Shown: piece by piece, positions 17,405-61,000 of the stretch | Layout of the letters: each line of letters begins with the position of its first letter | How positions within the stretch are numbered: the first letter of the stretch is position 1 | NCBI GenBank assembly: GCA_053919585.1 | Contig: CM132786.1 | From: Euprymna scolopes | Lineage: Eukaryota | Reading direction: 5' to 3' (one strand) | DNA length: 64,000 nucleotides | Translations under genes and position numbers: made by a program | The notes under the pieces: model-generated | Seen by the model: only the letters and a program-made list of their open reading frames with translations | Told to the model about the DNA's origin: nothing | Databases searched by the model: none

Positions 17405-17750
17405 TGTCGCAGCACGAGGACGGAGAAAGCTGTGTTAAGCGATATACACGCCAGAAATTCTTTTCAAAGTTGAACGAATGAGTTCTTTCGACTTCTGTCT
17501 TCTCGCAAACGTCGCACTCTTCACAATCAAGTTCTTTTCAACCGTCGACCGACAAAAAAAAAAAAAGAAACGACTCGCAATCTTTGTTTCGGCTTCACTT
17601 TTTATAGCCATCGGGCGAACCCAATTGTCGCGGTAATGCGAGTATCGCTCACAAACGTTTTTCTTTGTAATCTAACGGTCCCAGGTTTGATCCCCGACGC
17701 AGGCACGCACAACTCATACTTTTTGTGCGCTTTTGCGCATGCTCGTGACA
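17405..17750 (-). repeat. 3' LTR (346 bp)
   Basis: TGTCGC...GTGACA on + strand; homologous to 21412-21694 with an extra internal segment; TATAAAAA on minus strand at 17599-17606. Confidence 0.93.
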
Positions 17751-21395: not shown

Positions 21396-21400
21396 AATAA

Positions 21401-21411
21401 CCGAAATAGCT
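21401..21411 (-). other. Non-canonical primer-binding site complementary to tRNA-Phe nt 2-12
   Basis: AGCTATTTCGG directly follows the terminal CA of the 5' LTR; reverse complement CCGAAATAGCT equals the start of metazoan tRNA-Phe(GAA) GCCGAAATAGCTCAG. Confidence 0.8.
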
Positions 21412-21694
21412 TGTCGCAGCACGAAGGAGGAGAAAGTTAAGTAATTTATGTTAAGCGATATACACGTCAGAAATTATTTTCAAAGTTGAACGAATCAGTT
21501 CTTTCGACTTCTGTCTTCTCGTAATCTTTGCTCCGGCTTCACTTTTTATAGCCGTTGGGCGAACCCAATTATCGTGGTAATGCGACTATCGCTCACAAAC
21601 GTTTTTCTTTGTAATCTAACGGTCTCACGTTCGCTCCCCGACGCAGGCACGCACAATTCATACTTTTTGTGCGCTTTTGCGCATGCTCGTCACA
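21412..21694 (-). repeat. 5' LTR (283 bp)
   Basis: TGTCGC...GTCACA on + strand, homologous to 17405-17750. Confidence 0.93.
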
Positions 21695-23150: not shown

Positions 23151-25841
23151 AATACTACATAAATGATACTTTTCGAGCAATACCTGAAAATAAAATTCTT
23201 TAAATATTCCAATTACAGTAACTAAATAATTAGGTGTTTATTTTACATATATAGTATGAATGTACGACTTTCCTCTCCATTTATTCATCTGCAGGGACTT
23301 ATTTTATGTTTCGACGCCAATGTATACAAGACAATTATAATTAAGTTCTATTCGCGAACTTTTCGTTTCCTTGTTCAATATTTCCTCTTGAGGAGATAGA
23401 TCAATTACTTGTATATTGATTATACAATTCGATAGTACTTCTCAACAAAAGGTTGTCTGTCGTTCTACATACGAAATATGCATAAAGTGATTGCTATTTT
23501 TACAGTAGGTTTTACCTATAAAGCTGCATTGTTTGGTTGTGAATATGTAAATCGCTCAGCGGGTCAGCTTTTAGTTCGCAAGTTTTGCAGTAGATACTAC
23601 AAACTAGCGCAATTTCTTCCGTTTTTCTCGAAATTTCTTCACTATTTTTTGCGCAATCGGTTGCTAGTGAGGTCTGTCACGTAGTCTAAGCGTATAGGGT
23701 AGGCTAAGATATAGACACCAAACACAGGTAGGGGTAGATTATGGCTAGGAAATAACTAGATAATGAAACTTAGTCTTGAAGCACGAATAAGAATTTTTTT
23801 AAACTCGCAATATCTTTTTTGTGCTAAGACCTAGTGTTACATGATAAGGGCTGTCCCCTTTTCATGTAAGTATAAAAATACAGAGATTTAGTTAAAATGA
23901 AAATTAAATGAGAGAAAGCAGGAATCGAACCCTGGAGATAAGTTTTAAAGAACAATAGGTGTAAATGGAATGTTCAGTAAATTGTTGATTCTGATGAAAA
24001 AAATAATAAATAAACTATCATTGTTAGAAAGAATGTGGATAATAAAATATGGGTTAAATGAATTAGATATGTAGGTGAATTCCTTTGTGAAAACAACAAA
24101 GAAAAAATGGGAAATCAGAATGTTCGGAAACGTGCAGGTAGCGCATGTTGATGGCACGTGAATTGTGGTCATGTTGGCCGGACATGCATGGATTTCTCAA
24201 TATAGGAAGTGAGAGTTAGAGTAGTCAGAAGAAGGGAGGCAGAGAGTCAGAGTCAGGCGAGAGTTTGACCAGGGAAGAGAAGGTTCAGTTCGAATCTTGG
24301 CCTCTGGAAGCGAGAGGGATTTAAACAGAAAAAGATGTAAAGAAAGAACCTTTGAATTTCTGAATGCAAAGCCATTGACCGGTCAAGGGAAGAATAAATG
24401 CTCATCATGTTTTTTTTCGTAACTGCCGTCTCCTGTGTCCATCATTACATGAAAAAGGTATTGTCTATTTATGTGTAAAAACCATTTGAAATTCATCATC
24501 TAAAAAATATATGTGTTAGAAAGTATATGTGTCTATTTATGTTATACAAACACTCCCGTTCATACGAACTGTCAAAGCATAAATGCCAACCTGTCAATCC
24601 ATCGGCATAAATGCCAACCTATCGGTCTGTCTATCTAGATATGAAAACACCTTCTCAAAATGTATTTATATGCAATCTCTCATTTATAAACTCTCACTCT
24701 CTCTTTATATACACCTGTTAATGTTACCATATCTCAGATCTCTTACTTCCCTGAACACTCTTAAGACTCTAATCTCTCCTAAGACTGTCTATCACTCTAA
24801 GACTTTCTAATACAAACAATAACACTAAATAAGAACTCATGTAACATACGCGCACAAGTGGTACCTTCGTCTAATAATAACACCCTTACGTAACACTAGA
24901 TAAGCGATCATCTACATTAGATTTAGGAGTTAATTTTGTACCGTAAGCAAAATAGTCCTCTTTAGATGTCATCTCTTCATATGCGGCATCATCTAAGCTT
25001 GCTGTTGCATGAGTAAAAGATTCCATCAGAATTTAGGTACTTTTTTGGATTAGAATGTTCGAACCATTTTCCATCGATCTTGTTAACAGGTTGGAAACAT
25101 ATTTTTTCTTATAAATCTAGAATGATAGTAATTAAAATTTTCTTCGAAAAAAATATTTAATTAAGAATAGAATTGTTGCAAAAATTAGGCAAAGTTACTT
25201 TAAAGATGTAAAGAGTATTTTTTACCGTTGCACCACATGCTCCGGATCCTAGATCCAGAAAATCAGTGAGATTTTTGTCATCAATGCTCTTCAAAATGCT
25301 GCCATAGAAAAGTATGTCATTTGGGTAAATCTCAGTTAATAATCTAATGGTATTTTCTGTCAATTTCTTAATAAAGATCAAAATGAGTGTCTAACAGAAT
25401 GAATTGGTGAATATATTATGGGAAGTACATGGATCAATACGTGATCAGAATTTAACGACTAAACTATTGAAAGCACAATGATCGCTCATTTTTTTAATGA
25501 AATACTTGGGCAGCTAACAAAGTAAATGGACTCGATTCTATCGTAAGATATTACCACGAAATTAAGTAAAATATATACCATAGATTTTTTTCGTCTCATT
25601 AGAAAAACGGTGAAAAGTTGTCGAAAACAAACATTCAGACAGTATATAGACGTATGAATCTTCTACTTGTCCTTTAATGTGAGTTTTTGTACTTGGCTAT
25701 GTTTTACTAATAAATTTGGTTCGATTTAATTTTCATATCACTTAGTAGGTGCACCCATAGAGAATATTCCAAAATAGTAAAAAAAAAAAATCCGTGTCGC
25801 TGTAAAAAACTGATTCGATTTGTTTCACGGCATATTCATTT

Positions 25842-26165
25842 TATTGGACAGTTTATCCTGGCCAAAACTAAAAATAGAATGGTCATTCTTTTGAGTAAAA
25901 CAAGTTGAATTTCAAATTATTCGCTGTAAATAGACAATTTGTAAAAACACGTAATGTATTAATATTTTATATAGTTTTAATTCCTACATGAATTAACAAA
26001 CGCTGTCCAGGTTGTTGCTTATATACTTATATACTTATATACTTATATACTTATATACTATAGATTTTGGTAGTCATGAGCAAAACAAAGAAACGTTCAT
26101 CAAGTCTAAAAATGCCCAGTAAAAAATAAAAATATAAAACGATGTTTGATAAGAAGAATCTCTCT

Positions 26166-26205
<40 letters not shown>

Positions 26206-27053
26206 TTTTTTTTTTTTTTTTTGCACACTCTCCTTTTTTTCTTAATCATTTTCATGATTTAGTGACATAACTTCCGGGTCATCAGTACAAAATTAATAAA
26301 TTTCCGACCTCAGATTTCTGCCCAATCAAACGCTTTCGGAATTCGATATCTTCTTCATGTGATTTTATGTTTTATTTTTTTATTTTTTTCATTTTTAAAA
26401 TGTTGCTTCCTATTTGAAGTGTTGGAATCAAAATTTGCCTTTGAACTGCCGAAAACCATTATATCTTTGTGCAAAAAAAACAGGTTTCCTTCAGCTTAAA
26501 ACGTTCGCGGTGCACGCAAAAACGACATTCAATTTTCCCGTTTCACCGTCAGTAGGAAATCAGTATTTCATGTGAATTAACCATACGTTCAAACGACGCC
26601 GATTCAAAAACAATGCTCTCGCTAGTGAAAGAAATACCGATTTTATATGCTCAAATTCGACCGCATCTTTATTTGCATATGTCATTTTTTCTTTTCCTAT
26701 CGGTCAGGTTTCGAATTCGAGTGGCGGTAACTTTGCTCAATGCACATACGTCACTCTTGGACGCTTGTTTCCATTACAGTTCTCACAGTATTGTAATGGA
26801 AAAAATTATAGTTTAATTAAATCTGTAATTGATTTATTTACTTCCATATTATTTATCTATAATTAGTTTTGTTTTATATTGTCGAAGGCAATACAGTGTA
26901 GTTTTATCTGTATTATTATGTTTATTATTTTAATTAATTTTTACAGCGCTTGTTTAATTGTAAGATAATATATGCTTATATTAAATAATATATATTTTAT
27001 TATTATGGACATATGTATATGTTTTTATGTACTTAATCGTAGATAAAATACTT
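25842..27053. repeat. ~1.2 kb direct-repeat unit, copy 1
   Basis: Colinear similarity with 30440-31662 throughout, including the internal (CT)n tract. Confidence 0.93.
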
Positions 27054-27489
27054 TTAAATATGCACACATATATATATAATATACATGTATATATGAATCG
27101 TTCATTCGTTATTAATAGTCTAAATGACCACTAGACCGATAGCTTCGGCATTTTGGTATAATATGTTTACTGTAACAATGCGTGTTTTTATATATCTCTT
27201 TTTAATTATAACATTATACTTAATTTTCTTTAATAAATAGGTGGATTTCTTTGTAAGGATTTGGTCATTTGTTTATTCAGGGACATATATTTATCATCGC
27301 CCGCCATCACGTGACATCACTAAAAGGAACTTTTATATAATAAACTGACTGTTTTCGTTTAAAAATCGAATTGTTTCCATTTCGTTAATATTTTTTTTTG
27401 GTATTTCGTGTTTTATATATATAAAGTACAATTGCTGAATGTTATTCTTTTGATTATATTGGTTTGAGGGCACGATTAAGAAAACGATT

Positions 27490-30160: not shown

Positions 30161-30439
30161 TTATAGATGTTTACACTGATGGTTGCCTTATTCCGCCATA
30201 TAATAACGTGTCGAAACGAGAAGTCACCTTCAGAAATCTGGTTTAGTTTTTTTTTTCATTTCTAGGAAACATCATGCTCAGAGATTTTACTATTAGTTGC
30301 GCTCACGCTCGTTCGAACACACAACCCTATCTAAATAAATAAGTACCACGCCAATAGAACGAAAATTACAAATAAAGACTGTAGATTTTGAACAAAAAAA
30401 ATAATCAGTATTCTTTCAGGTATGTTTACTATTGATTTA

Positions 30440-31662
30440 TATTGGACATTTTATCCTGACGAAAACTTAGAATAGAATAATCATTATTTTGGGTGAAACA
30501 AGTTGGATTTCAGATTATTCACTGCAAATAGACAATTTGTAAAAACACGTAAGGTATAATTATTTTGTATAGTTTTATTTCCTACATGAATAACAAATTG
30601 CAGTCTACCTTGTGGCTTATATGCTCAAATACTATAGATTTTGGTATTCATGAGCAAAACAAAAAACGTTCAAGTCTAAATATGCCCAGTAAAAAATAAA
30701 AATATAAAACGATTTTTAATAAGGATAATCACAAGAATTCAATCTCTCTCTCTCTCTCGCTCGCTCGCTCTCTTTCTCTTTCGGTCTCTCTATCTCCTGC
30801 TCTGTTTCTATGACCATCTTATTTTCTTAATCATTTTCATGATGTAGTGACATAACTTCCGGATCATCAGTATAAAATTCATAAACTTCCAACTTTTGCT
30901 TTCTGACCAATAAAACGTTTTCGGATTCCGATATCCTTTTCAAATGATTTTATGCTCTATTATTTTCATCCAATGTTAAAATATTGCTTTGTATTTGAAG
31001 TGTCGAAATTAAAATGTGCTTTGAATTGCCGAATTCCGATATAGGTTCGTACAAATTTTTTTTTTCCTTCAGTTTATAACGTCCACGGCACACGCAAAAA
31101 CACATTCTTTTTTTCCTGTTTTACCGTTCGTAGAAAATCAGTGTTTCTTTCTTTCCATTGACACGTGAACTAACCGTACGTTCAAACGACGCCGAGTCAA
31201 AAAAAATGTTTTCGCTAATGAAAGAAATTCCAGCATTTTATATGCTCAAATTCGACCGCATCTTCATTTGCATATGGCATCTTTTCGTTTCCTATCGATC
31301 GGGTTTCGAGTTCGAGTTCGAGTGTCGGTAACTTTTCAGAATGCACATACGTCACTCTTGGACGCTTGTTTCCATTACAGTTCTCACGGTATTTTAAGGG
31401 AAAGAAAAATAGTAATGCAATTAAATCTGTAATTGATTTATGTATTTGTATATATTTTATCTGTTGATTGCTTTTGTTTTATATTGTCCAAGACAATACA
31501 GCGTAGTTTCATCTTTAATATCATGTTTATTATTTTTATTAATGTTTACAGCGCTTGTTTAATCATAAGATAATATATACATATATTCATATTTAATAAA
31601 TATTTGAATTATTATCGACATACGTATATGTTTTTATATACTCATTCATAGATAAAATACTT
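30440..31662. repeat. ~1.2 kb direct-repeat unit, copy 2
   Basis: Colinear similarity with 25842-27053. Confidence 0.93.
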
Positions 31663-31678
31663 ATCAACAAGCACCCAC

Positions 31679-31724
<46 letters not shown>

Positions 31725-34987: not shown

Positions 34988-35668
34988 ATTTTGTTTTATT
35001 ACATTTTCACCCAAAAAAAAGCACATTGCCACTTTGATGTAGGGGGCTACTATCAGGGGCAACAACTACTGGGGTACTATGTAGGGATTTGGGCAGCAAG
35101 ATGTCGGGTCACGTTGCACTTGAACTTCTATACGTCAGTACAGTTGGAGAAGCAGGGACCTGGAATGGAATTCCAAAATCTAGCGGTTCTGGGGAAGAAA
35201 CTACTGGAGTAGAAAGATCTTTTACATCTAGGGATCTCTACAGTGTGGGGGGGGGGGTTAGCAGCCTGTCGTGTTTGTCGAGGGTGTTCACGTTGTGGGG
35301 GCACAAGTGCTTGCAGTTTGTCAGAGCATTTACCATTAAAATACTTGTAGAACAGGATGAGGGATGCTACATTTCGTCGATGGGACAGAGGCTGAAGCTT
35401 AGATGCCAGTTCAGGTCATATCAGATTTGCGACTCTCTTTTGAACCTTGTCGAGGAGTGAGAGACTAGTAGCAGATGCACTAGCCCAAATGTGACAGTAA
35501 TACTCCATACATGGGCGAATGGTGGCCTTATAGAGGTACAGGATACTTTCGATTGTTAGTAGTTTTCTAGCACGGTAGAGAGAGCCCACCTTCCTTGCAG
35601 CGGCCCTAGCAATGCCTTCAATGTAATTGTTCCAACTCATGTTTTCTGTGAACGTTAGGCCAAGGTTC
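34988..35668 (-). mobile_element. LINE family A, 5'-truncated 3' end
   Basis: MSWNNYIEGIARAAARKVGSLYRARKLL... and the 3' UTR are closely similar to 53900-54579. Confidence 0.93.
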
Positions 35669-35786: not shown

Positions 35787-36952
35787 ATTTTTTACAAAGG
35801 AGACACCGGAAGCCACTCGAAGATAAGGGTTAATGGCTGTACAGTTTTCAATGAGACAATATCGTTGTAATCGTTAGTAGTGAAAATTTGGTCAATTGGA
35901 TTACGTTGGCCTTGAAGACGGCCACATTGTAGTAAGCTGGAAAGCAGGGAAATGGAAGAGAGTTCTACAGGTGTGCACTTCTAAGAAGGAAGCTTTGTTC
36001 ATGGAATCTACGTTTAGGTTTAGGCAGTGGGAGAAATTATTGATAGTTGTTTCGGGTAGACGAGTGTGTTCGTGTGGGAGAATTATAGTTTGGAGCACAT
36101 ACGAGAACTTGCCATGAAAATAAGGATACAGGATCGCAACGTTTATTTTGTACGAAAGAGGGTGCAAGGAAGAGAAAAAGGCATCCTCCACTAGGCTACA
36201 AAGTCTATTTTGAACTCTGTCAAGGCAGGATAAGCTGCGTCTAGATTTCCCTGTTCAGATGTGGCAACAGTACTCCATCCTTGGCTCTTATACAGGTAGA
36301 CAATTGCATCAGTAGTGAGATATCTACTGGAGCGGTAGAATGATCCCGGACGTTGCAACGGATTTAATGCACGTGTTTCATTTCATACCAGGAGTAAAGG
36401 TCAGCCTAAAGCTTGTCAAAACATGGAGCCTCTCCAAGACGAGAACCATTCATTTCAATTGATGCAAGACGGGGATCAGAGCGTTGATGATGTAAAGATA
36501 GGAGCTCGGGTTTAGATGCATTAAAAGTAACCAGCTACCTCTTTCCCAATTATACCACGTTCTAATATAACACAAAGGAGAGAGAAATCAGAGAGAACTT
36601 GGTCATTCCCGGCACTTGAAGTGTTGTCATAGATGGTAGTGTCGTTAACATAAATGTCTACGAATGATCTTTGGGCGTGATTTGGGAGATCATTAATGTG
36701 GATCAAGAAGAGAGTTAGGCCCCTGATTAACCCTGATAGATTCCAGCATTAATATTGTGAGCTTCTGCTTTCTCCCCATCGACCACTGCTCTTATGAACC
36801 TATAAGAGAGAAATTATTTAATAATTGAGAAAACATTTTCAGCTATACTGTAGCTAGAGATCTTGTGGAGTAGACCATTTATATATCCTACCAAAGGCCT
36901 TTGATATGTCAAGAGCAATTGCCCTAGAAAGAAAACCTCCATCGAGAGATTC
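35787..36952 (-). mobile_element. LINE family B, 3' part (runs into assembly gap)
   Basis: RAIALDISKAF, INDL RT motifs; colinear with 45163-46380. Confidence 0.92.
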
Positions 36953-45162: not shown

Positions 45163-48100
45163 TTCTTTTTCTTACAAAGGAATCATCACTTATAAATGGC
45201 AACTCGAGAATAAAGGTTAAAAGTGTACATTGGTCAAAAGGACAATATCATAGTAATCGTTAGAAATGTTAATGTTGTAAATTGGATTACTTAAGGGGAA
45301 CAGCTCATCAAGAACTTATTTACATTGAACTTGAAGACGGCCATATTGTAGTCAGCTGGAAAGCAGGTAAACGGAAGAGTCCACAGTTGTGCAGTTCGAA
45401 GAAAGAAGCTTTTTCATGGAATCTACGTTTGGTTTTAGGTACAGATAAAGAGTGGGGTATATTATTGATAGTGTTTACAGCCAAACGAGTGTTTCTTGTA
45501 AATGTTTGGCGAGGGGCGGGGACCATACATTGCAGCTCAAACCTGTCATGAATACAACGATAAAACAGAGATCGGCTCGCAACGTCTCTTCTGTGAGAAA
45601 GAGGTTGCAGGGAAGAGAAAAGGGCATTCCCCATTAGGCTACAAATTCTATTCTGAAGTATGTCAAGGCAGGATAAGGTTTTCCTAGAAGCTCCTACCCA
45701 GATTTGATAGCAATACTCCATCCTTGGACGAATATATAGATAGAGAATTGCATCAACAGGTAGATATTTACTGGATCGATAGAAGGATCCCATCATTTTT
45801 CCAGCGACCATGGCACAGATTTGATGTACGCATTCCATTTTAGATCAGGAGTAAAGGTCAACCCCAGAAGCTTGTCAAAACAAGGAGCCTCACAAAGAGG
45901 AGGGCTATTCATTACAATTCATGTCAGATTGAGATTAGAGCGTTGATGATGTAAAGATAGAAGCTTGGTTTAAGATGCATTAAAAGTAAGCAGACACTTT
46001 TTCCCCATTGTACAACGTGCTCAAGATCATAGGAGAGAAAATCAAGGAGAACTTGGTCGTTTACGGCCTTTGATGTGCTATAATAGATGGTAGTTTCGTT
46101 AGCAAAAATGTGTACGAATGATTATTAATATAGATCCGGAAGAGAGTTTGATAAGGGTCGACCTTTGAGGGACACCAGCATTAATGCTATGAGCTTCAGA
46201 TTTCTGCACATCAACACTATTATAAACCTATCAGAGAGAAACAATTTCATGATTAAAAATTTCCAGCTATACCACAACTGCAGATTTTGTAAAGTAGACG
46301 TTTATGCCATACTCTATCAAAGTGCTTTGGTATGTCAAGAGCAATTGCCCTAGAAAGGGGGCCTTCGTCGAGAGTTTCGCTAACCCTATGAGAAATAACC
46401 GTAAGCACGCCCGATGTTGATCTAGCAGGACGGAAACTATATTGCATGTCACTAAGAAGATTATATTTGCTGAGATGGTTGACTACTTCTCTATTTAACA
46501 CAGATTCAAGTAATTTACTCATGACGCACAGGGCACTTATTGGTCTGTACTGAGAGGGAGATTGCTGATCACCGTAATTCTTAAATACATGGCATACCGT
46601 TATAATTTCCAGGGTGTTTGGAAGCAATTCTCCTTAAGACAACGCTTAAGCAGCTTTGTTAGTATGTGAGCTAGTTCTAGTTGAAGCTTTTTGACACTAT
46701 AATTGGAATGCCATCAGAAGTTGCTTTACTGGAATTAAGGTTCTTGATTAGCTTAGTAACATCACGCACATATATTTGTATGTCGCATAGCGTGTTTTCT
46801 GATACAGGAGAAAATACGAAGGTGGGTAGCGGCCTTGGACGCATAGAGTAGAATTAGTTGCAAAATTCTTCGCAAATTGGTTGGCTTTGTCTGATGCTGA
46901 CGAGATTACCTAAGGTATTGATGCTAGTCGGAATAGAGCATACACTTCTGTTAAGGATTGTGCTTGCTATTTGCCAAAACTGGTGAAAACCAAGCCGAGG
47001 CTCAGCCACTTTGGACTTGACAGACTGAATATACAACTGTCTAGCGTTCTTCAGTACTCTTTTACAGTGGTTGCTGGCAGTCCTGAAAGCGGATTTAGTC
47101 TGAGTGCATGTAATACGTTGGAAGCAATGGAAAAAGTGATTTCTGTGCGCAATAGCAGCAACACATTCCGGAGATAACGACGACTGGCTGTTAGGTTTTT
47201 CTGGATTTTTTACGAGGGTATGAAACTGTCTTTACCTACAATTAACCATTCCGTCAGGTCTGCTACTATAGAGGATACATCCTTTTAAAACATGGAACGG
47301 AGAGGTAGATCAGATATAACTGTATGGAAGCTATCCAAGTCAGCCATAGAGTATCGATATACTGTACGATGGACTGGTACATCAGAGGTCTTATTACATT
47401 TCTTTGTTATTTAAACTGACACAACAAAGTGATCGGAAGACCCCAGTGGAGACATAACAGAAGAGGAACATAGCTCAGGACAAGTTGTGTAGGAGACTTG
47501 CACACTGACCGTCAGTATCAGGCAAACGGGTGGGTTCGCGAACAATCTGAGTGAGATCATAAGCAATGAAGAAATCGTGACAGAACATTCCCTCATCATC
47601 TGTCTTTTTTGAGTGTGTTAAGCATTCCGCATTGTGAACATTGAAGTTTTCACTGACGTGAATGTTAGCCGAAGGATGAACAGATAGGATGTAGTCGATT
47701 TTCTTAGATATGCCCTTAAAGATAATAACTCCGCTGTTGTGGAGACGATATAGGGCAAATATAAACGCAGTCGTGTGAGCAAATGCAACACGGAAGCATA
47801 TATAGGGCAATTTAGGATCTTCTTAGATGTTAGTACTACACGGAAAGCCATCTTTAATGAAGGCACATTTTCCATTGCCCATGGCGATCTTGGGTGTACG
47901 ATTTAGATGTTAAGTTGGAGTATTTTTTAATTCTAGACTCCTCTAGGGAAATAGTCGGTTCAATGTCAGTTTCACTTAGGAATAATAGGTCTGGTTTGAT
48001 CTCTTGTAATTGGGTTTCAACCTCTGGAAAGTTGGAACATAGATCCCTGATGTTTGAGAAGGAGATATAATAGTAGGAGTCTACGTTGGAAGTTGAAGAT

Positions 48101-50999: not shown

Positions 51000-53900
51000 C
51001 TTAAGGACGAGCGATAGAGTACCCTGCCTGATTCTGGTTTCTTGTTGAGGTAAGGCGCTGTGTTCGTTATGGGAGAGCTACTTTTGCTCGGTCTACAATA
51101 TACTCCTTCTTTGTCTATTAGCCAGGCGTAGAGGTCGAATCACAGGGAGTCGATAGAAACACTTTATGGTCTATCTTGTTTCCTTACTAGGGCAATAAAC
51201 GCCGTTTTCCCCCACTCCCGACACATCCCATCCCTTAAACTGGGCACTTGAATGCCGTAATGCCAGTGCAAGCAGATTGGGTTGACCATTATCTGATGGG
51301 TTGAGGATACCGGATAGACAGTTCCTGGCTGCTGTTCCCGACTGGTAGTACAGGACCCTAACTCTTTGGTAGCGCTTAGAGCGGTTGCTCCATCAACAGT
51401 TGTATAATATCAGGATGCTTTAGTGCCATGTCGCGCATGGAAAGGGACCCTGCACTCATACCCGGTGAGCTATCCGGAGGCCACAATCCTAGTAGATGGA
51501 GGGAAAGCTGATGGTATGCTTGTGTTGCATGTCAGGTATTCTGCATAACCACTTGCTCAGCACTCCTTACCTAAAATGAAACTATTAAAAAAATGACAGT
51601 ACATTCCAAAATGACGCTAAAACCAGGTCAAAAACCAATCAAATCCAACCTGCCTTCTCCCTTGAGGCTTGCATTTACGAATATCCGTGGGCTTAGAACT
51701 AATTTAAATGATTTTGAAGCATTCCCCTAACAAACACCCCGGATAGCTTAGCACTAAGTGACTAACCTAGACTCCTCCATCCCCTCTAACTACTTTAACA
51801 TGCTTGGATATCTCCCACTCTACCGTAAGGACTCTGACAGACATATGCATGAGCCTGGAGTCTACATTCGTAACACCCTCCCCTTGATTAGAGAAACTAA
51901 ACTAAAATCGGACGATCAAGCCTTTATGTGCTTTAGACTTAACATGCAACATAACATTAGCTACTTTTATTTTCTCTACCGCTCTCCCTCGACCCAGGAC
52001 TACACCCTAATAAACAAAGGGTCTGACAGCATAGATACAGCACTTTCCCTCGACACTAGCGCACAAGTGCATGTATTTGGTGACTTCAACGTCCATCACA
52101 GCAACTGGCTTGAATTCTCTACTGACACAGAGGCAGCTGGTACCACAACAAATAACTTCTCTATATCTCATTCCCTATCATTTACAACTCATTTTCCAGA
52201 CCAGCATGAACAACACGCATCACTTCTAGATTTATTTTTGACCACAGTTCCCGATGACTGTAACGAATGCCCACAGTCCTTTAGGGAACGCCGATCATGC
52301 AGTGGTAATGGTTGAAATCGCCCTAAACTCTAGAGCCAAAACTGAAGAGACACTGCTTAAAACAATGAAATATTATAAAAAGGCTGACTGAGAAGCCATC
52401 AGGGATCTCATCAGGGACGCTCGATGGCAAAATATTTTTTCACTTCCTTCTCAACATTGCGCAAATGAGACCACTGGATGGTTCAAAACGGCAATTGAAG
52501 CACATGTTCCCACGCGCAAATTCTATAGCAAGCCCCACTCTCCCCAATGGTTTGCTTCTACTTGTGCAGCTGCCTTATCGCAAAGCAGCATGCGTACCGC
52601 AAATTAAACTGACATAAGTTCAGATCAAACAGACAGATAGAAGCCAGAAATATCTGTAAGAAATAAATAGCGACAGCTAAGAGAGAATTTACTGAAACCA
52701 CCAACAAACGCATCGAATTACAGAAATTAGGAACGCCTGACTTCTGGAAAATCTACAACAGTGTAGTAAATAATGGGCAATCAACAATTCTCCTACTATC
52801 CAACAATCATGAGGTTGTTTGCTCTACAACTGAGAAGGCTAACATGCTTGCCAGACGGTTTGCCTCCAACTCCACACTGAACCCTGCTAACCACCCCTTT
52901 CCTGACTTTCCTTTGCGGACATACGCCACACTAGACGATCTGAAAATCATACCTTCTCAGGCGTATGCTATCATAAGGAATCTTCACACTGCAAAAGCAT
53001 GTGGACCTGATCTCATTCTGGTTGTGCTATTAAAAAAGTGCGCCGCCGAAGTAACTCCAGTTCTCTCTAAACTTTACAACGAATACCTTAATGAATCTTG
53101 CTTCCCTGCCTGCTGGAAAACAACTTCTGTAGTACCAGTGTTCAAGAATTCTGGCGGAAGAACTGACCCAGTAAATTATCGCCCCATTAGCCTCCTGCCA
53201 TTTTTCGCCAAAATATTTGAGACCAAAATTAACCAAGCTCTAGTCCATCACCTTACAGACGCTAAACTTTTACTGGCCAACAATATTGATTTAGGCAAGC
53301 CCGTTCCACAGCAGACATCCAAACTGTAATCTCAGAACGTATATACTATTCACTGGACAAAGCGGGGGAGGAAAGAGCGGTAGCTCTAGATATATCTAAG
53401 GCTTTTGACAGGGTATGGCATGAGGGTCTCCTCAAGAAAATCAAGTCAGACGGTATCACTGGACGAATACTTAACATAATTAAATCCTTCTTAGATAAGA
53501 GATAAATTCAGGTTGTCCTTGACTGTCTTACATCTAAACAATATGATATAAATGCGGGAGTGCCTCAGTGGTCTATCCTTGGACGTCTATTATTCCTAAT
53601 ATTTATAAATGATCTCCCTGGCAAAATTGTCTGTGAGATGGGTATATATGCTGACGACACGATGCTCTATAACGGATACGACAGGAAAACAAATGAACAC
53701 ATATCTAAAGAACTGGCATAAACTCTAGAGGATGACCTCCGATCTGTAGTGAAATGGGCCCAAAAATTGATAGTCACCTTCAATGCTGCCAAGACTAAAC
53801 TTGTTTCCTTCAATAATTACAAGAAATCTTCCCTACCACAAATAGCAATGGCCAATGACTCTTTATCTGAAAGTACATCTTTTAAACTCCTCCGCCTAAC

Positions 53901-54579
53901 GTTCACAGGAAATATGAGTTGGAACAATTACATTGAGAAAATGGCCAGGATCGCTGCGAAAATGGTAGGGTCTCTCTTCCGTGTTAGAAAGCTATTAACG
54001 CCCGAAAGTATCCTATACCTCTATAAAGCCACCATTCGCACATGTATGGAATATTGTTGTCATATTTGGGCTGCTGCATCTGCCACTAGTCTCTCGCTCC
54101 TAGACAAGGTTTAAAAGAGAGTCGCAAATCTAATAGATCCTAAACTGTCATCTCAACTTCAGCCTCTGTTCCATCAACGAAATATTTCATCCCTTCGCCT
54201 GTTCTACAACTACTTTAATGGTGAATGCTCTGACGAACTGCAAGCACTTGTGCCCCCTCGACGTAAATACCCCCGACAAACCCGACAAGCAGCAAAATCC
54301 CACCCCTTCACGATACAGATCCCTAGATTAAGACAGCCTTTTACTCCAGAACCGCTAGACTTTGGAACTCCCTTTCCCCAGAAATGCTAGATTGTGGAAT
54401 CCCCTTCCAGATCCCTGCTTCCCCAACTGTACTGACATGCAGAAGTTAGTGTAACGTGAACTGACATCTTGCTGCTCAACTCCCTATACAGTACCCTGGA
54501 TGTTTATGTACCTGATAGTAGCCCCCTACAACAAAATGGCAATGTGCCTTGTTTGGGGTGAAAATGCAATAAAAAAAAA
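51000..54579 (+). mobile_element. LINE family A, near full length, degenerate (APE endonuclease plus RT, CR1/Jockey group)
   Basis: AFTNIRGLRTN, GDFNVHH, LDLF, YRPISLL, ALDISKAFDRVWH, GVPQ, YADD, MEYCCHIW; poly(A) at about 54571-54579. The 5' limit is approximate. Confidence 0.95.
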
Positions 54580-57500
54580 TTCTTCAGTACATTCGATCAT
54601 TGTCATTTAAAGCCTACCCCTGTAATGGATTACATCAACTGCCAGTCTTTCCCAGGTCCCAGTCATATCCAGTTCTTCAGCTTCGTGCATGCTTGGAGCA
54701 GGGACAATTGACTGACATCTGTCGCAAGTCCTAACCACTTGCTTTACCTGTTTCCTTGGTGACACTCGGATGGACTTTTCTCACCATGTACAACGTCCTT
54801 ACTACCCCTATCTGGTGTAGATCGTGCAACTCTCGCACCCAAGAATTATCCAGATCAGACACTGCAGCAACATCCTCATTTTGGGGCACGAGCTAACTCT
54901 TTTTCACTCTCGTGAAAACATCTGATTTGTTCTTCTCAGAGGCCACCACGATTACGCGCAGAAATCTCCCGAATCAGCTCAGCCAGCATTCCAAGCTTGC
55001 GCTACACCAGCATCTCTACTGTCCCTTTCGTTTTTACCCTTTTATCGTTTGAAATCATTGATTTTAACCAGGCAAACACAGTTGCAGAGTCTGTTTTCAT
55101 AGACGTCGCGTAGTTTATATTTGAAGGTCACATTCATTCCTTTGGTAACTGCATCCAATTCTGCCACATTGATGTAGCTATCATCATCCTCATCATCAGC
55201 CAGGCCGCCTCCTGCGCAACCACTTCATCCACTTCCAAGACGACACATGTTACCATGTTGCTTGCATCACAGCACACGACCCCATCCAGTGTTCGAGACA
55301 CGTTCAATGTTCCCTGAACTGAGTCTTGCCTTTCCACTTCTTTCAGGACCTCTTCAGTTAAGTAACCGTTCTTCCTCCTAATTTATCGTCCCATCCTCTT
55401 CTTTCGGCATGTCTCTTGATGTAGTTGCATGTGGTCTAAACCAGCTGGCAACGGAGTAATCCCCGATCTGTCTGGCGCATACGGAAAAAGCTCCCACTTG
55501 TCGAGCTCTTCTTTCATTTGTGGGATCTCATTCCCTCTTCGAAATTCTTGGCCACCTGACTCACTTCGTTTCAGATTTAGCCCCAAGGTCGCTCCCCGGT
55601 CATATTCTTCAGGTGCCTTGGCGACCAGCCTGAACTTCTTCAATTGAATCACCACGTCCTTTGCTGTATCAGAGTTTCATTTACGAGAATGTCATCGATG
55701 TACGAGCTCACGGCACAATCGCTCCAAAACCTTTCTAAAATTGTGGAAATGATATTTGGTGCCGAGTTCAACCCGACCCCTACCAACGTAAGGCAATAGG
55801 ATCTGCCTTTATATCTGACCAACTGGTAATTCCAAAGTTTTTTGGCGATGCGGATTTGCAAGACGGCAGATTTCAGATCGATCAACGTAGTCGCATTTTT
55901 CATTTGCCTCCATTCACTGCATACATCTACAGCGTCACCCCCAGTATGGAACTCAACATGTTTTTTCAACTCTTGGAAATCTAGAACTGGTCTGACCTTC
56001 CATTTTGTTGGTTGCAGAACTGCCATCAATGGCAAGATGCCCGATTCGACGTCATCCGTTCACGCAACAGTATACCGTCCTCAATCCATCTGTCCACTTC
56101 TCGTTCAAAATACTCACTTACTCCTCCTTTAACCGAATTATTAACGCATGCAACCCTGTTTGTTAGCGTAGGCGATTTATCCTGCCACGCTCACTCCACT
56201 GTCCACTAAATCTCGTCGAATTCTGCTTGAAAATCCGGGTCACTGATCGAGATCCATCTCTTTTCTCTGACATCTTTGCGCCCTTCGTTGACCTGTTCTG
56301 CCACTGCTGCGCACCTTGTCGGTCCTGATCTCACGTCATTGCTACTTACTGTAACATCACCAAGTAGGCATATTACGTCCATTTCAACAATCGTTTGAAC
56401 ACCAGGCACCAGTTGATCGGTGACAATTGCATGTACCCTCATCCGCTGATCCACTTGTGACGGTCCTCCTCCCTCGACACTTCACTCGTGACCCATCAAA
56501 TGCCACTATTTCGCCCTTCCATTTCCATCTTTCGACCAGACTTTTGTGCACCATAGTAGTGATACAACCAGTGTCGATCGGATCCGTGACTTATTGTCCT
56601 TCCACAACAATCTCTCGCTTGGGCATCTGCTGTGAGCGCGTCATTATTCCCAAGGCGGAACAGCTGCTGGTGCTTTGGCTCCCCTTTTGCTAGTTTCCCG
56701 GACTCGTGTAGTTCACTGCGATGTGCGCACCATGGTTACACCTGTGGAACACTATCTTTTCGTTGAACTTCCTATAGTCTTTCCGCAAGTGAAGCCCCTC
56801 ACATTGGAAACATGCACATCACGGTGTCAGCCGACTTCTGCTCACATCCTTCCGCGCTGTTGCCACCGTTCCTACGAAACTTGAGGGTTGAGTGCTCACT
56901 AATATTTTCGCAGTTGAGAGCAGCTCGCTCACCTTCAAGGACCTTCTGTAACCTCTTGAAAATCTCCTCCTTGAACCCGGTGACAAACGCCATCTTGGCA
57001 AGGTGACATGCTGCCTGCCTCCTAATTCCTGATAGTTCCAATAATCTGTTATTATTATCTTATTATCTTACACGGCGACGGATTCCTTCCTCCACCTAAT
57101 TTCTGCTGAACACCTCAAACGGACCTCTCAGCAAGTGCCTGGATCAATCTGACTTTAACTGCGTCAGCATCATCTTGTTCCAGCCCATTAATCTCCAAGT
57201 ATAGGGCTAGGGCACCCCCCGCCAGGAATAATGGTATCACTATGGCAAAATAGAATATATTTAGGAGCTTCACCACTAGGTTCAATTTTTTTTAGCCAAG
57301 ACACCACATCGCCTTCGCCACTGAATAACTTTATCATATTGTTTAGACCGGTTGCCATAGCCGAAATAGCTTGTTCCTTTGTTGATCAAGCTGTGAGAAG
57401 TCGTAACAGCTGTCCTCCAAACACGTGGCTAGACATCCAACAATCGTCAAAGGTCACAATCCTACTTCTAAACTCAGGCTGCTTTTATACTATCTATCTT

Positions 57501-57645
57501 CTCCATTTGCATGTATATGGCGAGATTTCGCGAGACAACAGCTTATAAAACCACAGGCATCATCTTTAATCTCTCTCTTTATCACCTGACTTCGCCCGAC
57601 ACATACGTGGAAAGATTCCTGTTTCCTTTACTGAAGACAACAACA
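54580..57645 (-). mobile_element. Second LTR retrotransposon of the same lineage, 3'-truncated within integrase
   Basis: gag MATGLNNMIKLFSGEGDVVSWLKK; IDTGC; VRPVLDFQEL; IDLKSA; SSYIDDILV; CDAS RNase H; HHCC; putative 5' LTR from 57372 (TGTT) to about 57645 (AACA) with TATA at 57483-57489. The outer LTR end is inferred. Confidence 0.9.
57360..57371 (-). other. Non-canonical primer-binding site complementary to tRNA-Phe nt 1-12
   Basis: + strand reads GCCGAAATAGCT|TGTT, a 12/12 match to the 5' end of metazoan tRNA-Phe(GAA). Confidence 0.82.
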
Positions 57646-60532: not shown

Positions 60533-61000
60533 CTTTTTTTACTTTGGAGTCACCATTTATTAAGACCCGAAGGTCACTTGAGGATAGGAGTTAACGAATG
60601 TTAGGTAATAGTTTAATAATCGGTAATGGAGTAATTGCATATAATGTGATTGTTTACATCGGATTTGAAGGCTATCATGTTGTATTAAACCTGGAAGCAA
60701 GCCAGCGAAAGAGGGTTCCGCAGGCGAGCAGTTCTGGGAAATAATGAATGGAATCTGTGTTTAGATTTAGACACATATAGAGAGTGGAGGAAATTGTATA
60801 TAGTGGTTGTAGCCAGTTCGGTGCTTTTGTGGGAGTTTTGCAAAGGGGAGCCATAGATTGTAGTTCAGTCGAGCACTTACCATGAAAATAATGATAGAAC
60901 AGAGATAGGTTCACAATCGTATCTTCTGTGAAAAAGAGGTTGCAGGGAAGGTAAAAGGGCATCACGTACTAGGTTTCGAATCCGGTTTGGAACTCAATAA
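60533..61000 (-). mobile_element. LINE family B, short 3' fragment
   Basis: LFYHYFHGKCSTELQ...; colinear with 45163-45660. Confidence 0.85.

Follow-up and report, generated by a model that had tools for sequence, protein, structure and literature searches.

The locus raises the question of how reverse transcription could be primed in an LTR retrotransposon that carries, between its 5′ LTR and its gag start codon, a match to the 5′ end of a host tRNA. A sequence-only reading of the window (the whole stretch of 64,000 nucleotides from Euprymna scolopes that was analysed) had pointed to a perfect 12/12 complement of the tRNA-Phe 5′ end, 1 nt from the gag ATG, and the sequence together with the host tRNA genes bears this out. 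With a probability of roughly 80% we consider the site to be the primer binding site (PBS) of a widespread, compact clade of LTR elements, in which nucleotides 1–12 of tRNA-Phe would serve as minus-strand primer once the tRNA has been cut between U12 and C13, probably by the RNase H of the element. Canonical priming by the 3′-CCA end of a tRNA was rejected, since the PBS lacks the TGG start and pairs with the tRNA 5′ end. The window holds two elements of this clade with the following features.

57372..57642, minus strand: 5′ LTR of element 2, 271 bp, TG...CA (from solo/3′ LTR copies and the paired copy)
57484..57489, minus strand: TATA-like box, predicted promoter, 118 nt upstream of the PBS (from sequence)
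57360..57371, minus strand: putative PBS of element 2, 12 nt, complement of tRNA-Phe(GAA) nt 1–12, following the LTR without spacer (from sequence, ARAGORN and copies)
56690..57358, minus strand: gag of element 2, ATG at 57358-57356, with frameshifts and stops (from tblastn with intact relatives, and sequence)
56693..56699, minus strand: GGGAAAC in the gag-pol overlap, predicted −1 frameshift site (from sequence)
54568..56436, minus strand: broken pol remnant of element 2, PR-RT-RH and start of IN (from tblastn pieces in several frames)
51500..54588, plus strand: LINE inside element 2 in opposite orientation, 51500 not being a mapped end (from an Exo_endo_phos_2 match)
21412..21694, minus strand: 5′ LTR of element 1, same clade, unrelated to the LTR of element 2 (from LTR comparison)
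21400..21411, minus strand: putative PBS of element 1, 11/12 plus a G-U pair at tRNA G1, with the gag ATG following at a distance of 4 nt (21395) (from sequence and pairing)
17405..17750, minus strand: 3′ LTR of element 1, immediately after a purine tract (from LTR comparison)

The heptamer GGGAAAC at 56693..56699, which we take to be of a −1 frameshift motif type, recurs in element 1 and in an intact copy whose gag and pol overlap. The LINE truncates element 2: a family copy can be aligned only down to 54589, and a 3′ LTR of element 2 is missing within the window. Element 2 is old; its identity to the paired family copy is 77–85%, and gag and pol are broken. An inverted second fragment of the interrupting LINE lies at window 34988-35665 (83% against 53889-54580). 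An insertion at window 17570-17510, some 60 nt long and including a T-run, distinguishes the 3′ LTR of element 1 from its 5′ LTR, which lacks it. Other repeats of the window are an old duplication with 4.6 kb spacing (25800-27100 and 30400-31700), a three-copy dispersed repeat (35900-36550, 45300-46000 and 60650-61000) and a 20-nt tandem array (148-767).

On the minus strand the LTR of element 2 ends with GGAACA, followed by AGCTATTTCGGC (57371-57360), a single T and the ATG (57358-57356). The site is the exact reverse complement of nucleotides 1–12 of the host tRNA-Phe(GAA), as given by tRNA genes called with ARAGORN, and the computed energy of the tRNA/site duplex is −18.7 kcal/mol. Since tRNA C13 cannot pair with the last LTR base, pairing extends 0 nt into the LTR, as it does in 19/19 family representatives. 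The earlier reading had the match run exactly from tRNA G1 to the LTR boundary at 57372, and the solo and 3′ LTR copies together with the paired copy confirm this position: the solo and 3′ LTR copies lose the match at query 281–297, with the mode at 289, which is window 57372. An earlier LTR end at CAACA (57380) was discarded, since copies match on to 57372. Seven of 29 related loci in the element 2 family are solo or 3′ LTRs with unrelated DNA beyond the edge, and in 22/29 the site lies beyond it. The expectation that the family carries the 12-mer holds in part: the 12-nt form is found in 7/22 copies, while 14/22 have a 13-nt form with one extra base and 1/22 another form. The LTRs of the two window elements are indeed dissimilar (best blastn E 0.38).

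To judge chance, the window alone is uninformative, with 4 sites at 2 mismatches versus a shuffle mean of 3.6, i.e. chance level. The host genome (5.9 Gb) was searched with CA plus the first 11 nt of the site and with the reversed query as control. Although the window alone is at shuffle level, the 13-mer CAAGCTATTTCGG gave 5,961 genome matches compared to 45 for the control, which upholds the view that the motif is functional rather than a chance match. Among the first 30 genome matches, 24 run in frame into gag, and they belong to many families with unrelated LTRs. An LTR pair was recognized at 13/21 loci examined, with a clear 5-bp target duplication at 5 but not at window element 1, and at the loci examined for LTR pairs the site directly follows the terminal CA without a spacer. 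The 5′ end of tRNA-Phe is matched at about 650 places in the genome, and ARAGORN called tRNA-Phe(GAA) at 5/5 loci checked. Taken together, sequence and genome data support a functional PBS that lies at the true LTR boundary and is predicted to pair with the 5′ end of tRNA-Phe.

Several further observations were made on these loci. One of the families, family T, is present in 4/4 poly(A)/oligo-dT RNA runs from 2 studies, including contigs that join LTR, site and gag; these are contigs only and were not counted as expression. All four RNA runs also show very deep contig cover at L463:3884-4000, the outer end of that stretch, probably from another abundant repeat. Tandem arrays of tRNA-Phe genes lie at G000:C28:101.70-101.72 Mb (219-bp period) and at C18:100-105 Mb, and in L040 the anticodon is AAA in 5/8 genes. 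At L019/L020 and L441/L442, elements are paired head to tail at a distance of about 4.1 kb and seem to have an LTR in common.

The 12-mer could instead stem from self-priming of the Tf1 type, or from another RNA such as a tRNA-Phe-derived repeat. The geometry of Tf1 is indeed alike, as its RNA 5′ end pairs right after the LTR (bioRxiv 10.1101/2022.12.06.519325, in excerpt). Nevertheless, the best upstream match to the needed 12-mer reaches 7–10/12 in 32/32 elements, where shuffled sequence gives about 8, and self-priming from the LTR was rejected because its complement stays at this shuffle level; against another RNA stand the roughly 650 tRNA-Phe-type 5′ ends of the genome. We regard origins of this kind as very improbable, with a tRNA-derived repeat RNA that has the same 5′ end as a residual possibility, and tRNA-Phe itself as the likely partner of the site.

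Relatives of the clade in metagenomes were chosen by their pol and not by the motif, yielding 77 loci, 51 of them with a readable gag start; several of the contigs are duplicates. A motif AGCTA-N4-GGC is found at the LTR edge in 44/51 relatives with a readable gag start; in the others the last two bases differ (3), the first base differs (1) or the site is broken or decayed (3). N4 is TCTA in 11, TCGC in 11, TTTC in 9, TCAC in 7 and TCCC in 2 of the 44 sites, and four other types occur once each. The variable letters face acceptor-stem positions 4–7 of the tRNA, and 38/44 sites, comprising the four commonest types, are complements of a real tRNA-Phe(GAA) 5′ end. The comparison set consisted of 174 tRNA-Phe loci from viral and MAG contigs, many of them archaeal and not the element hosts' own; it holds 17 distinct GCC-type 5′ ends, which gives a rough uniform chance of 2e-5 for the top four types. 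For 6/44 sites (5 types) a match is absent among these 174 loci. The 35 of 77 element contigs covered are free of tRNA genes, so that host-matched tRNAs were not seen, and no relatives of the clade were found in viral contigs. In an RT-RH tree (FastTree, 56 rows, clade members only; L089 was dropped for low coverage), ten genome families with 31–76% RT-RH identity fall into two distant parts and all have the host tRNA-Phe-type site, whereas their nearest foreign relatives (up to 67% RT-RH identity) have a different site middle.

Rarer 12-nt sites without a tRNA-Phe match are found at L192:1408, L177, L186, L168, L184 and L172/L174. The L177 site presumably resembles the 5′ end of tRNA-Lys(UUU) and the L192 site that of elongator tRNA-Met, a hint that the primer may switch while the priming mode stays the same. 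Between the PBS and the gag ATG of L143, at L143:1840-1950, lies a tRNA-like cassette, about 105 nt long, with A-box-like and B-box-like motifs and a T-run; a 6-nt direct repeat that overlaps the end of the PBS borders it on both sides, and ARAGORN calls no tRNA there.

The distance between PBS and ATG is short in many loci. It is 1–34 nt in the genome (median 9, 24/30 loci with a readable gag start) and 0–104 nt in the metagenomes (median 4, 40/77 loci), and the 1-nt gap of element 2 is family-specific. Distances of 2 and 5 nt are absent among the 64 loci, and at a spacing of 0–1 nt the −3 purine of the start context is the PBS's own G. The notion of essentially no 5′ leader lacks support in that form: judged by the predicted start, the TATA-like box 118 nt before the site implies a 5′ UTR of roughly 100 nt, and what the sequence appears to lack is a long leader between PBS and gag, not a 5′ UTR. 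With a family-specific gap and such a predicted 5′ UTR, the proposed switch between translation and priming is unsupported, although a conflict between the two is possible for some families, because the spacing is short clade-wide. The site might also be a regulatory target, at which a 5′ tRNA fragment blocks the gag start codon while priming takes place elsewhere. The ATG lies ≤6 nt from the site in 12/24 genome and 24/40 metagenome loci, which would suit such a role, yet the site is located exactly where minus-strand priming must begin, and a canonical 3′ tRNA-Phe site (TGG start) was found after none of the LTRs scanned, with one stray match about 2 kb inside an element. Given in addition the spacing of up to 104 nt and an allele pattern that points to copying (see below), we hold a purely regulatory role to be improbable and a PBS to be the better description.

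If the site is a PBS, its variants may tell whether the primer is copied back. In retroviruses the primer is copied into one strand, so that insertions with the parental and with the tRNA version of the PBS arise (PMC7472051, in excerpt); for Ty1 and Ty3, the available text of PMC5371799 describes inheritance of the parental PBS and no such copying. In the host genome, position 8 of the site is altered in 719 cases, position 7 in 561 and position 6 in 71; positions 7 and 8 are far from the priming end. Variants at position 8 read TTCC in 98/100 listed, and those at position 7 are mostly TCTC. tRNA isodecoders were rejected as the source of these alleles, with 0 and 1 matching tRNA genes, respectively, and A-to-I editing of the primer was set aside because the frequencies are family-specific.

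Copies of family T, a young family, were anchored regardless of their site, and a hand count of the first 100 of 663 copies gave 45 tRNA-type, 33 TTCC and 22 TCTC alleles. Sub-lineages were derived from 59/70 copies, after 10 short copies and one tandem partner had been dropped; the site itself, the CpG positions and the T-run in U5 were masked. Derived SNPs delimit lineages in which a single mismatched allele occurs next to the perfect form: 6 TCTC with 7 perfect (nested 3+2), 4 TTCC with 3, and further ones with 2+1 and 1+1. TTCC is absent from the 13-copy TCTC lineage (p ~0.002 under free mixing; 59/70 copies), all three alleles occur on older shared markers, and some clades are purely tRNA-type. 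The sub-lineages rest mostly on single SNPs, and some markers conflict, indicating recombination. A parental allele with both mismatches, predicted for this family, was found in 0/100 of the first 100 of 663 copies. The tRNA-perfect site thus reappears in about half of the copies per sub-lineage, and from these patterns we infer that this is the outcome to be expected if the primer were copied as in retroviruses.

Two other families were compared. In family B, copies with a mismatch opposite tRNA C2 and perfect copies are interleaved (22/24 copies); as this sample was picked 10+10, only the interleaving is informative, and it suggests that copying may reach the second tRNA base. A C-run of variable length directly follows the site in 33/100 family B copies, possibly due to slippage or to untemplated nucleotides added where the plus strand stops; by hand count, 13 of these 33 copies are mismatched and 18 perfect. 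Family A is nearly uniform (88/100 perfect, 4/100 TTCC, hand count). The occurrence of TTCC in family A too, and the recombination visible in the family T markers, would suit a PBS whose mixed alleles arose by ordinary descent from several sources, by a mutation hot spot or by recombination. However, young nested lineages mix one mismatch with the perfect form only, never both mismatches, and the two forms are mixed in a ratio close to 1:1, at differing positions and in as many as three families. An origin of the alleles other than primer copying is therefore unlikely in our view. In the family of element 2, the 12- and 13-nt forms are not split by any supported clade (15/22 sequences, in a star tree with little power), and under primer copying the perfect 12-mer of the window is likely a corrected copy.

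Priming by a 5′ fragment of tRNA-Phe appears highly probable from the sequence data. As the primer needs a 3′ OH at U12, the tRNA has to be cut within the D-stem. We propose that annealing of the tRNA 5′ strand by the Gag nucleocapsid would open the acceptor stem as well as the D-stem, and that RNase H would then cut the tRNA at the duplex edge in a Tf1-like manner, yet on a separate molecule; cleavage of an RNA duplex by RNase H was reportedly described for Tf1 by Levin in 1996. Plus-strand synthesis would pass through the short primer toward G1, and with one strand per new insertion carrying the tRNA copy, a mismatched parent would give rise to tRNA-perfect sites in about half of its daughters. 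Nearest-neighbour energies are −21.9 kcal/mol for the intact cloverleaf and −7.2 kcal/mol for the opened form; the cost of about 15 kcal/mol nearly cancels the gain from the duplex, so that a chaperone or a prior cut is needed. Within 150 nt of the site, no second region pairing with tRNA nt 13–76 was found (best runs 8–13 versus shuffle means of 9–10, no common position).

By analogy, the element's own RNase H has about even odds of being the cutter. A real though lesser possibility is that the same primer is made by another enzyme: a host nuclease would open the D-loop, a 5′ fragment of 13–26 nt would anneal, and its unpaired 3′ tail would be trimmed to nt 12. The end is fixed at nt 12 in the D-stem across clade and hosts, which rather fits an enzyme that measures the duplex, and the Tf1 precedent likewise favours RNase H, whereas a pre-cut fragment would avoid the cost of unfolding. 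Host 5′ tRNA fragments of 13–26 nt, produced by cuts in the D-loop, are known (PMC10275265, in excerpt), and the primer end of Ty5 is made by host RNase P (PMC5371799, in excerpt). Cutting by the RNase H of the element is nevertheless the version we carry forward.

In the literature searched, which left out Repbase Reports, most subscription journals and supplements, no report of a PBS complementary to a tRNA 5′ terminus was found; an earlier database note on such a PBS is possible. Searches for the site motifs themselves returned unrelated papers only. As PBS finders seek tRNA 3′ ends, they would list these elements, thousands per genome, as PBS-less. If our reading is true, the short list of priming routes for LTR elements gains one more, a trans counterpart of Tf1 self-priming and possibly a model for its origin. 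Furthermore, thousands of perfect genomic targets for 5′ tRNA fragments would lie beside gag start codons, and restraint of retrotransposons by 5′ as well as 3′ tRNA fragments could be tested. The site would also report the tRNA-Phe sequence of the host and could flag host switches.

An intact copy encodes a gag with two CCHC knuckles (CX2CX4HX4C) and an overlapping pol with the order PR-RT-DUF7047-RH-IN. The elements are very short (4.3–4.7 kb) and have a weak RVT_1 score. DUF7047, a mark of the clade, is situated between the RT core and RNase H; its appearance, by eye, is RT-thumb-like. Named relatives among 651 pol homologues (L085 as query) come from Trichuris, Trichinella, decapods such as Macrobrachium and Petrolisthes, and the barnacle Amphibalanus, and a cluster look-up with one homologue returned nothing but generic retroelement clusters and DUF7047 clusters, the latter mostly from arthropods. 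Compared to solved structures, pol has its best, though low-scoring, matches in retroviral IN and RT; the best 60 listed do not include Ty3 RT. In the intact pol no chromodomain was detected on the integrase at E≤0.1 (Pfam), and inspection of one intact pol by eye revealed no literal GPF/Y, while its C-terminus does have a similar module. A separate classification may be warranted for the lineage. Somewhat short of even odds, we envisage a deep, unnamed animal LTR lineage marked by DUF7047, perhaps a superfamily of its own, in which RNase H would clip 12 nt off a host tRNA, the whole primer would be copied into the genome and the PBS would track the host tRNA-Phe.

The elements resemble the Metaviridae (Ty3/Gypsy) in the broad sense in their TG...CA LTRs, 5-bp target duplications, CCHC gag and PR-RT-RH-IN order, the 5 bp falling within the 4–6 bp of that family, and differ by their very short length and weak RVT_1 score; in the one intact pol inspected, no literal GPF/Y was seen, a motif which in the integrase is a trait of Metaviridae (PMC12440569, in excerpt). 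The Troyka elements or Kuafuorterviruses are likewise a divergent LTR lineage of mostly aquatic animals in which the domains follow a Gypsy-like order; they are characterized by CG...CG ends, 3-bp duplications, [IVL]ADD and a longer zinc knuckle (excerpts of PMC12440569 and PMC11673190). With TG...CA ends, 5 bp and YIDD, the present elements do not belong to the Kuafuorterviridae.

HIV, MLV and mouse ETn/IAP resemble our proposal in that the primer is copied into one strand (PMC7472051, in excerpt), and IAP uses tRNA-Phe. Retroviruses pair with the 3′ CCA end over 18 nt, 2–4 nt from the LTR, whereas the present clade, in which no env was seen, pairs with the 5′ end over 12 nt without a spacer.

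The self-primer of Tf1 pairs over 11 nt. In Tf1/Tj1 and the sushi chromoviruses, the 5′-terminal nucleotides of the RNA pair right after the CA of the LTR and must be cut free (PMC4600332 and bioRxiv 10.1101/2022.12.06.519325, in excerpt). Unlike these, the present elements have no self-complementary LTR sequence and no chromodomain, and would use a host tRNA in trans.

In the Pseudoviridae, with copia and Ty5, the integrase precedes RT, in contrast to the PR-RT-RH-IN order of the present clade. Drosophila copia and yeast Ty5 are also primed by a 5′ tRNA fragment from an internal cut, namely of initiator tRNA-Met in the anticodon loop, in Ty5 by host RNase P (PMC10275265 and PMC5371799, in excerpt). 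The present clade differs in pairing with nucleotides 1–12 of tRNA-Phe only and in a cut that is predicted to fall in the D-stem.
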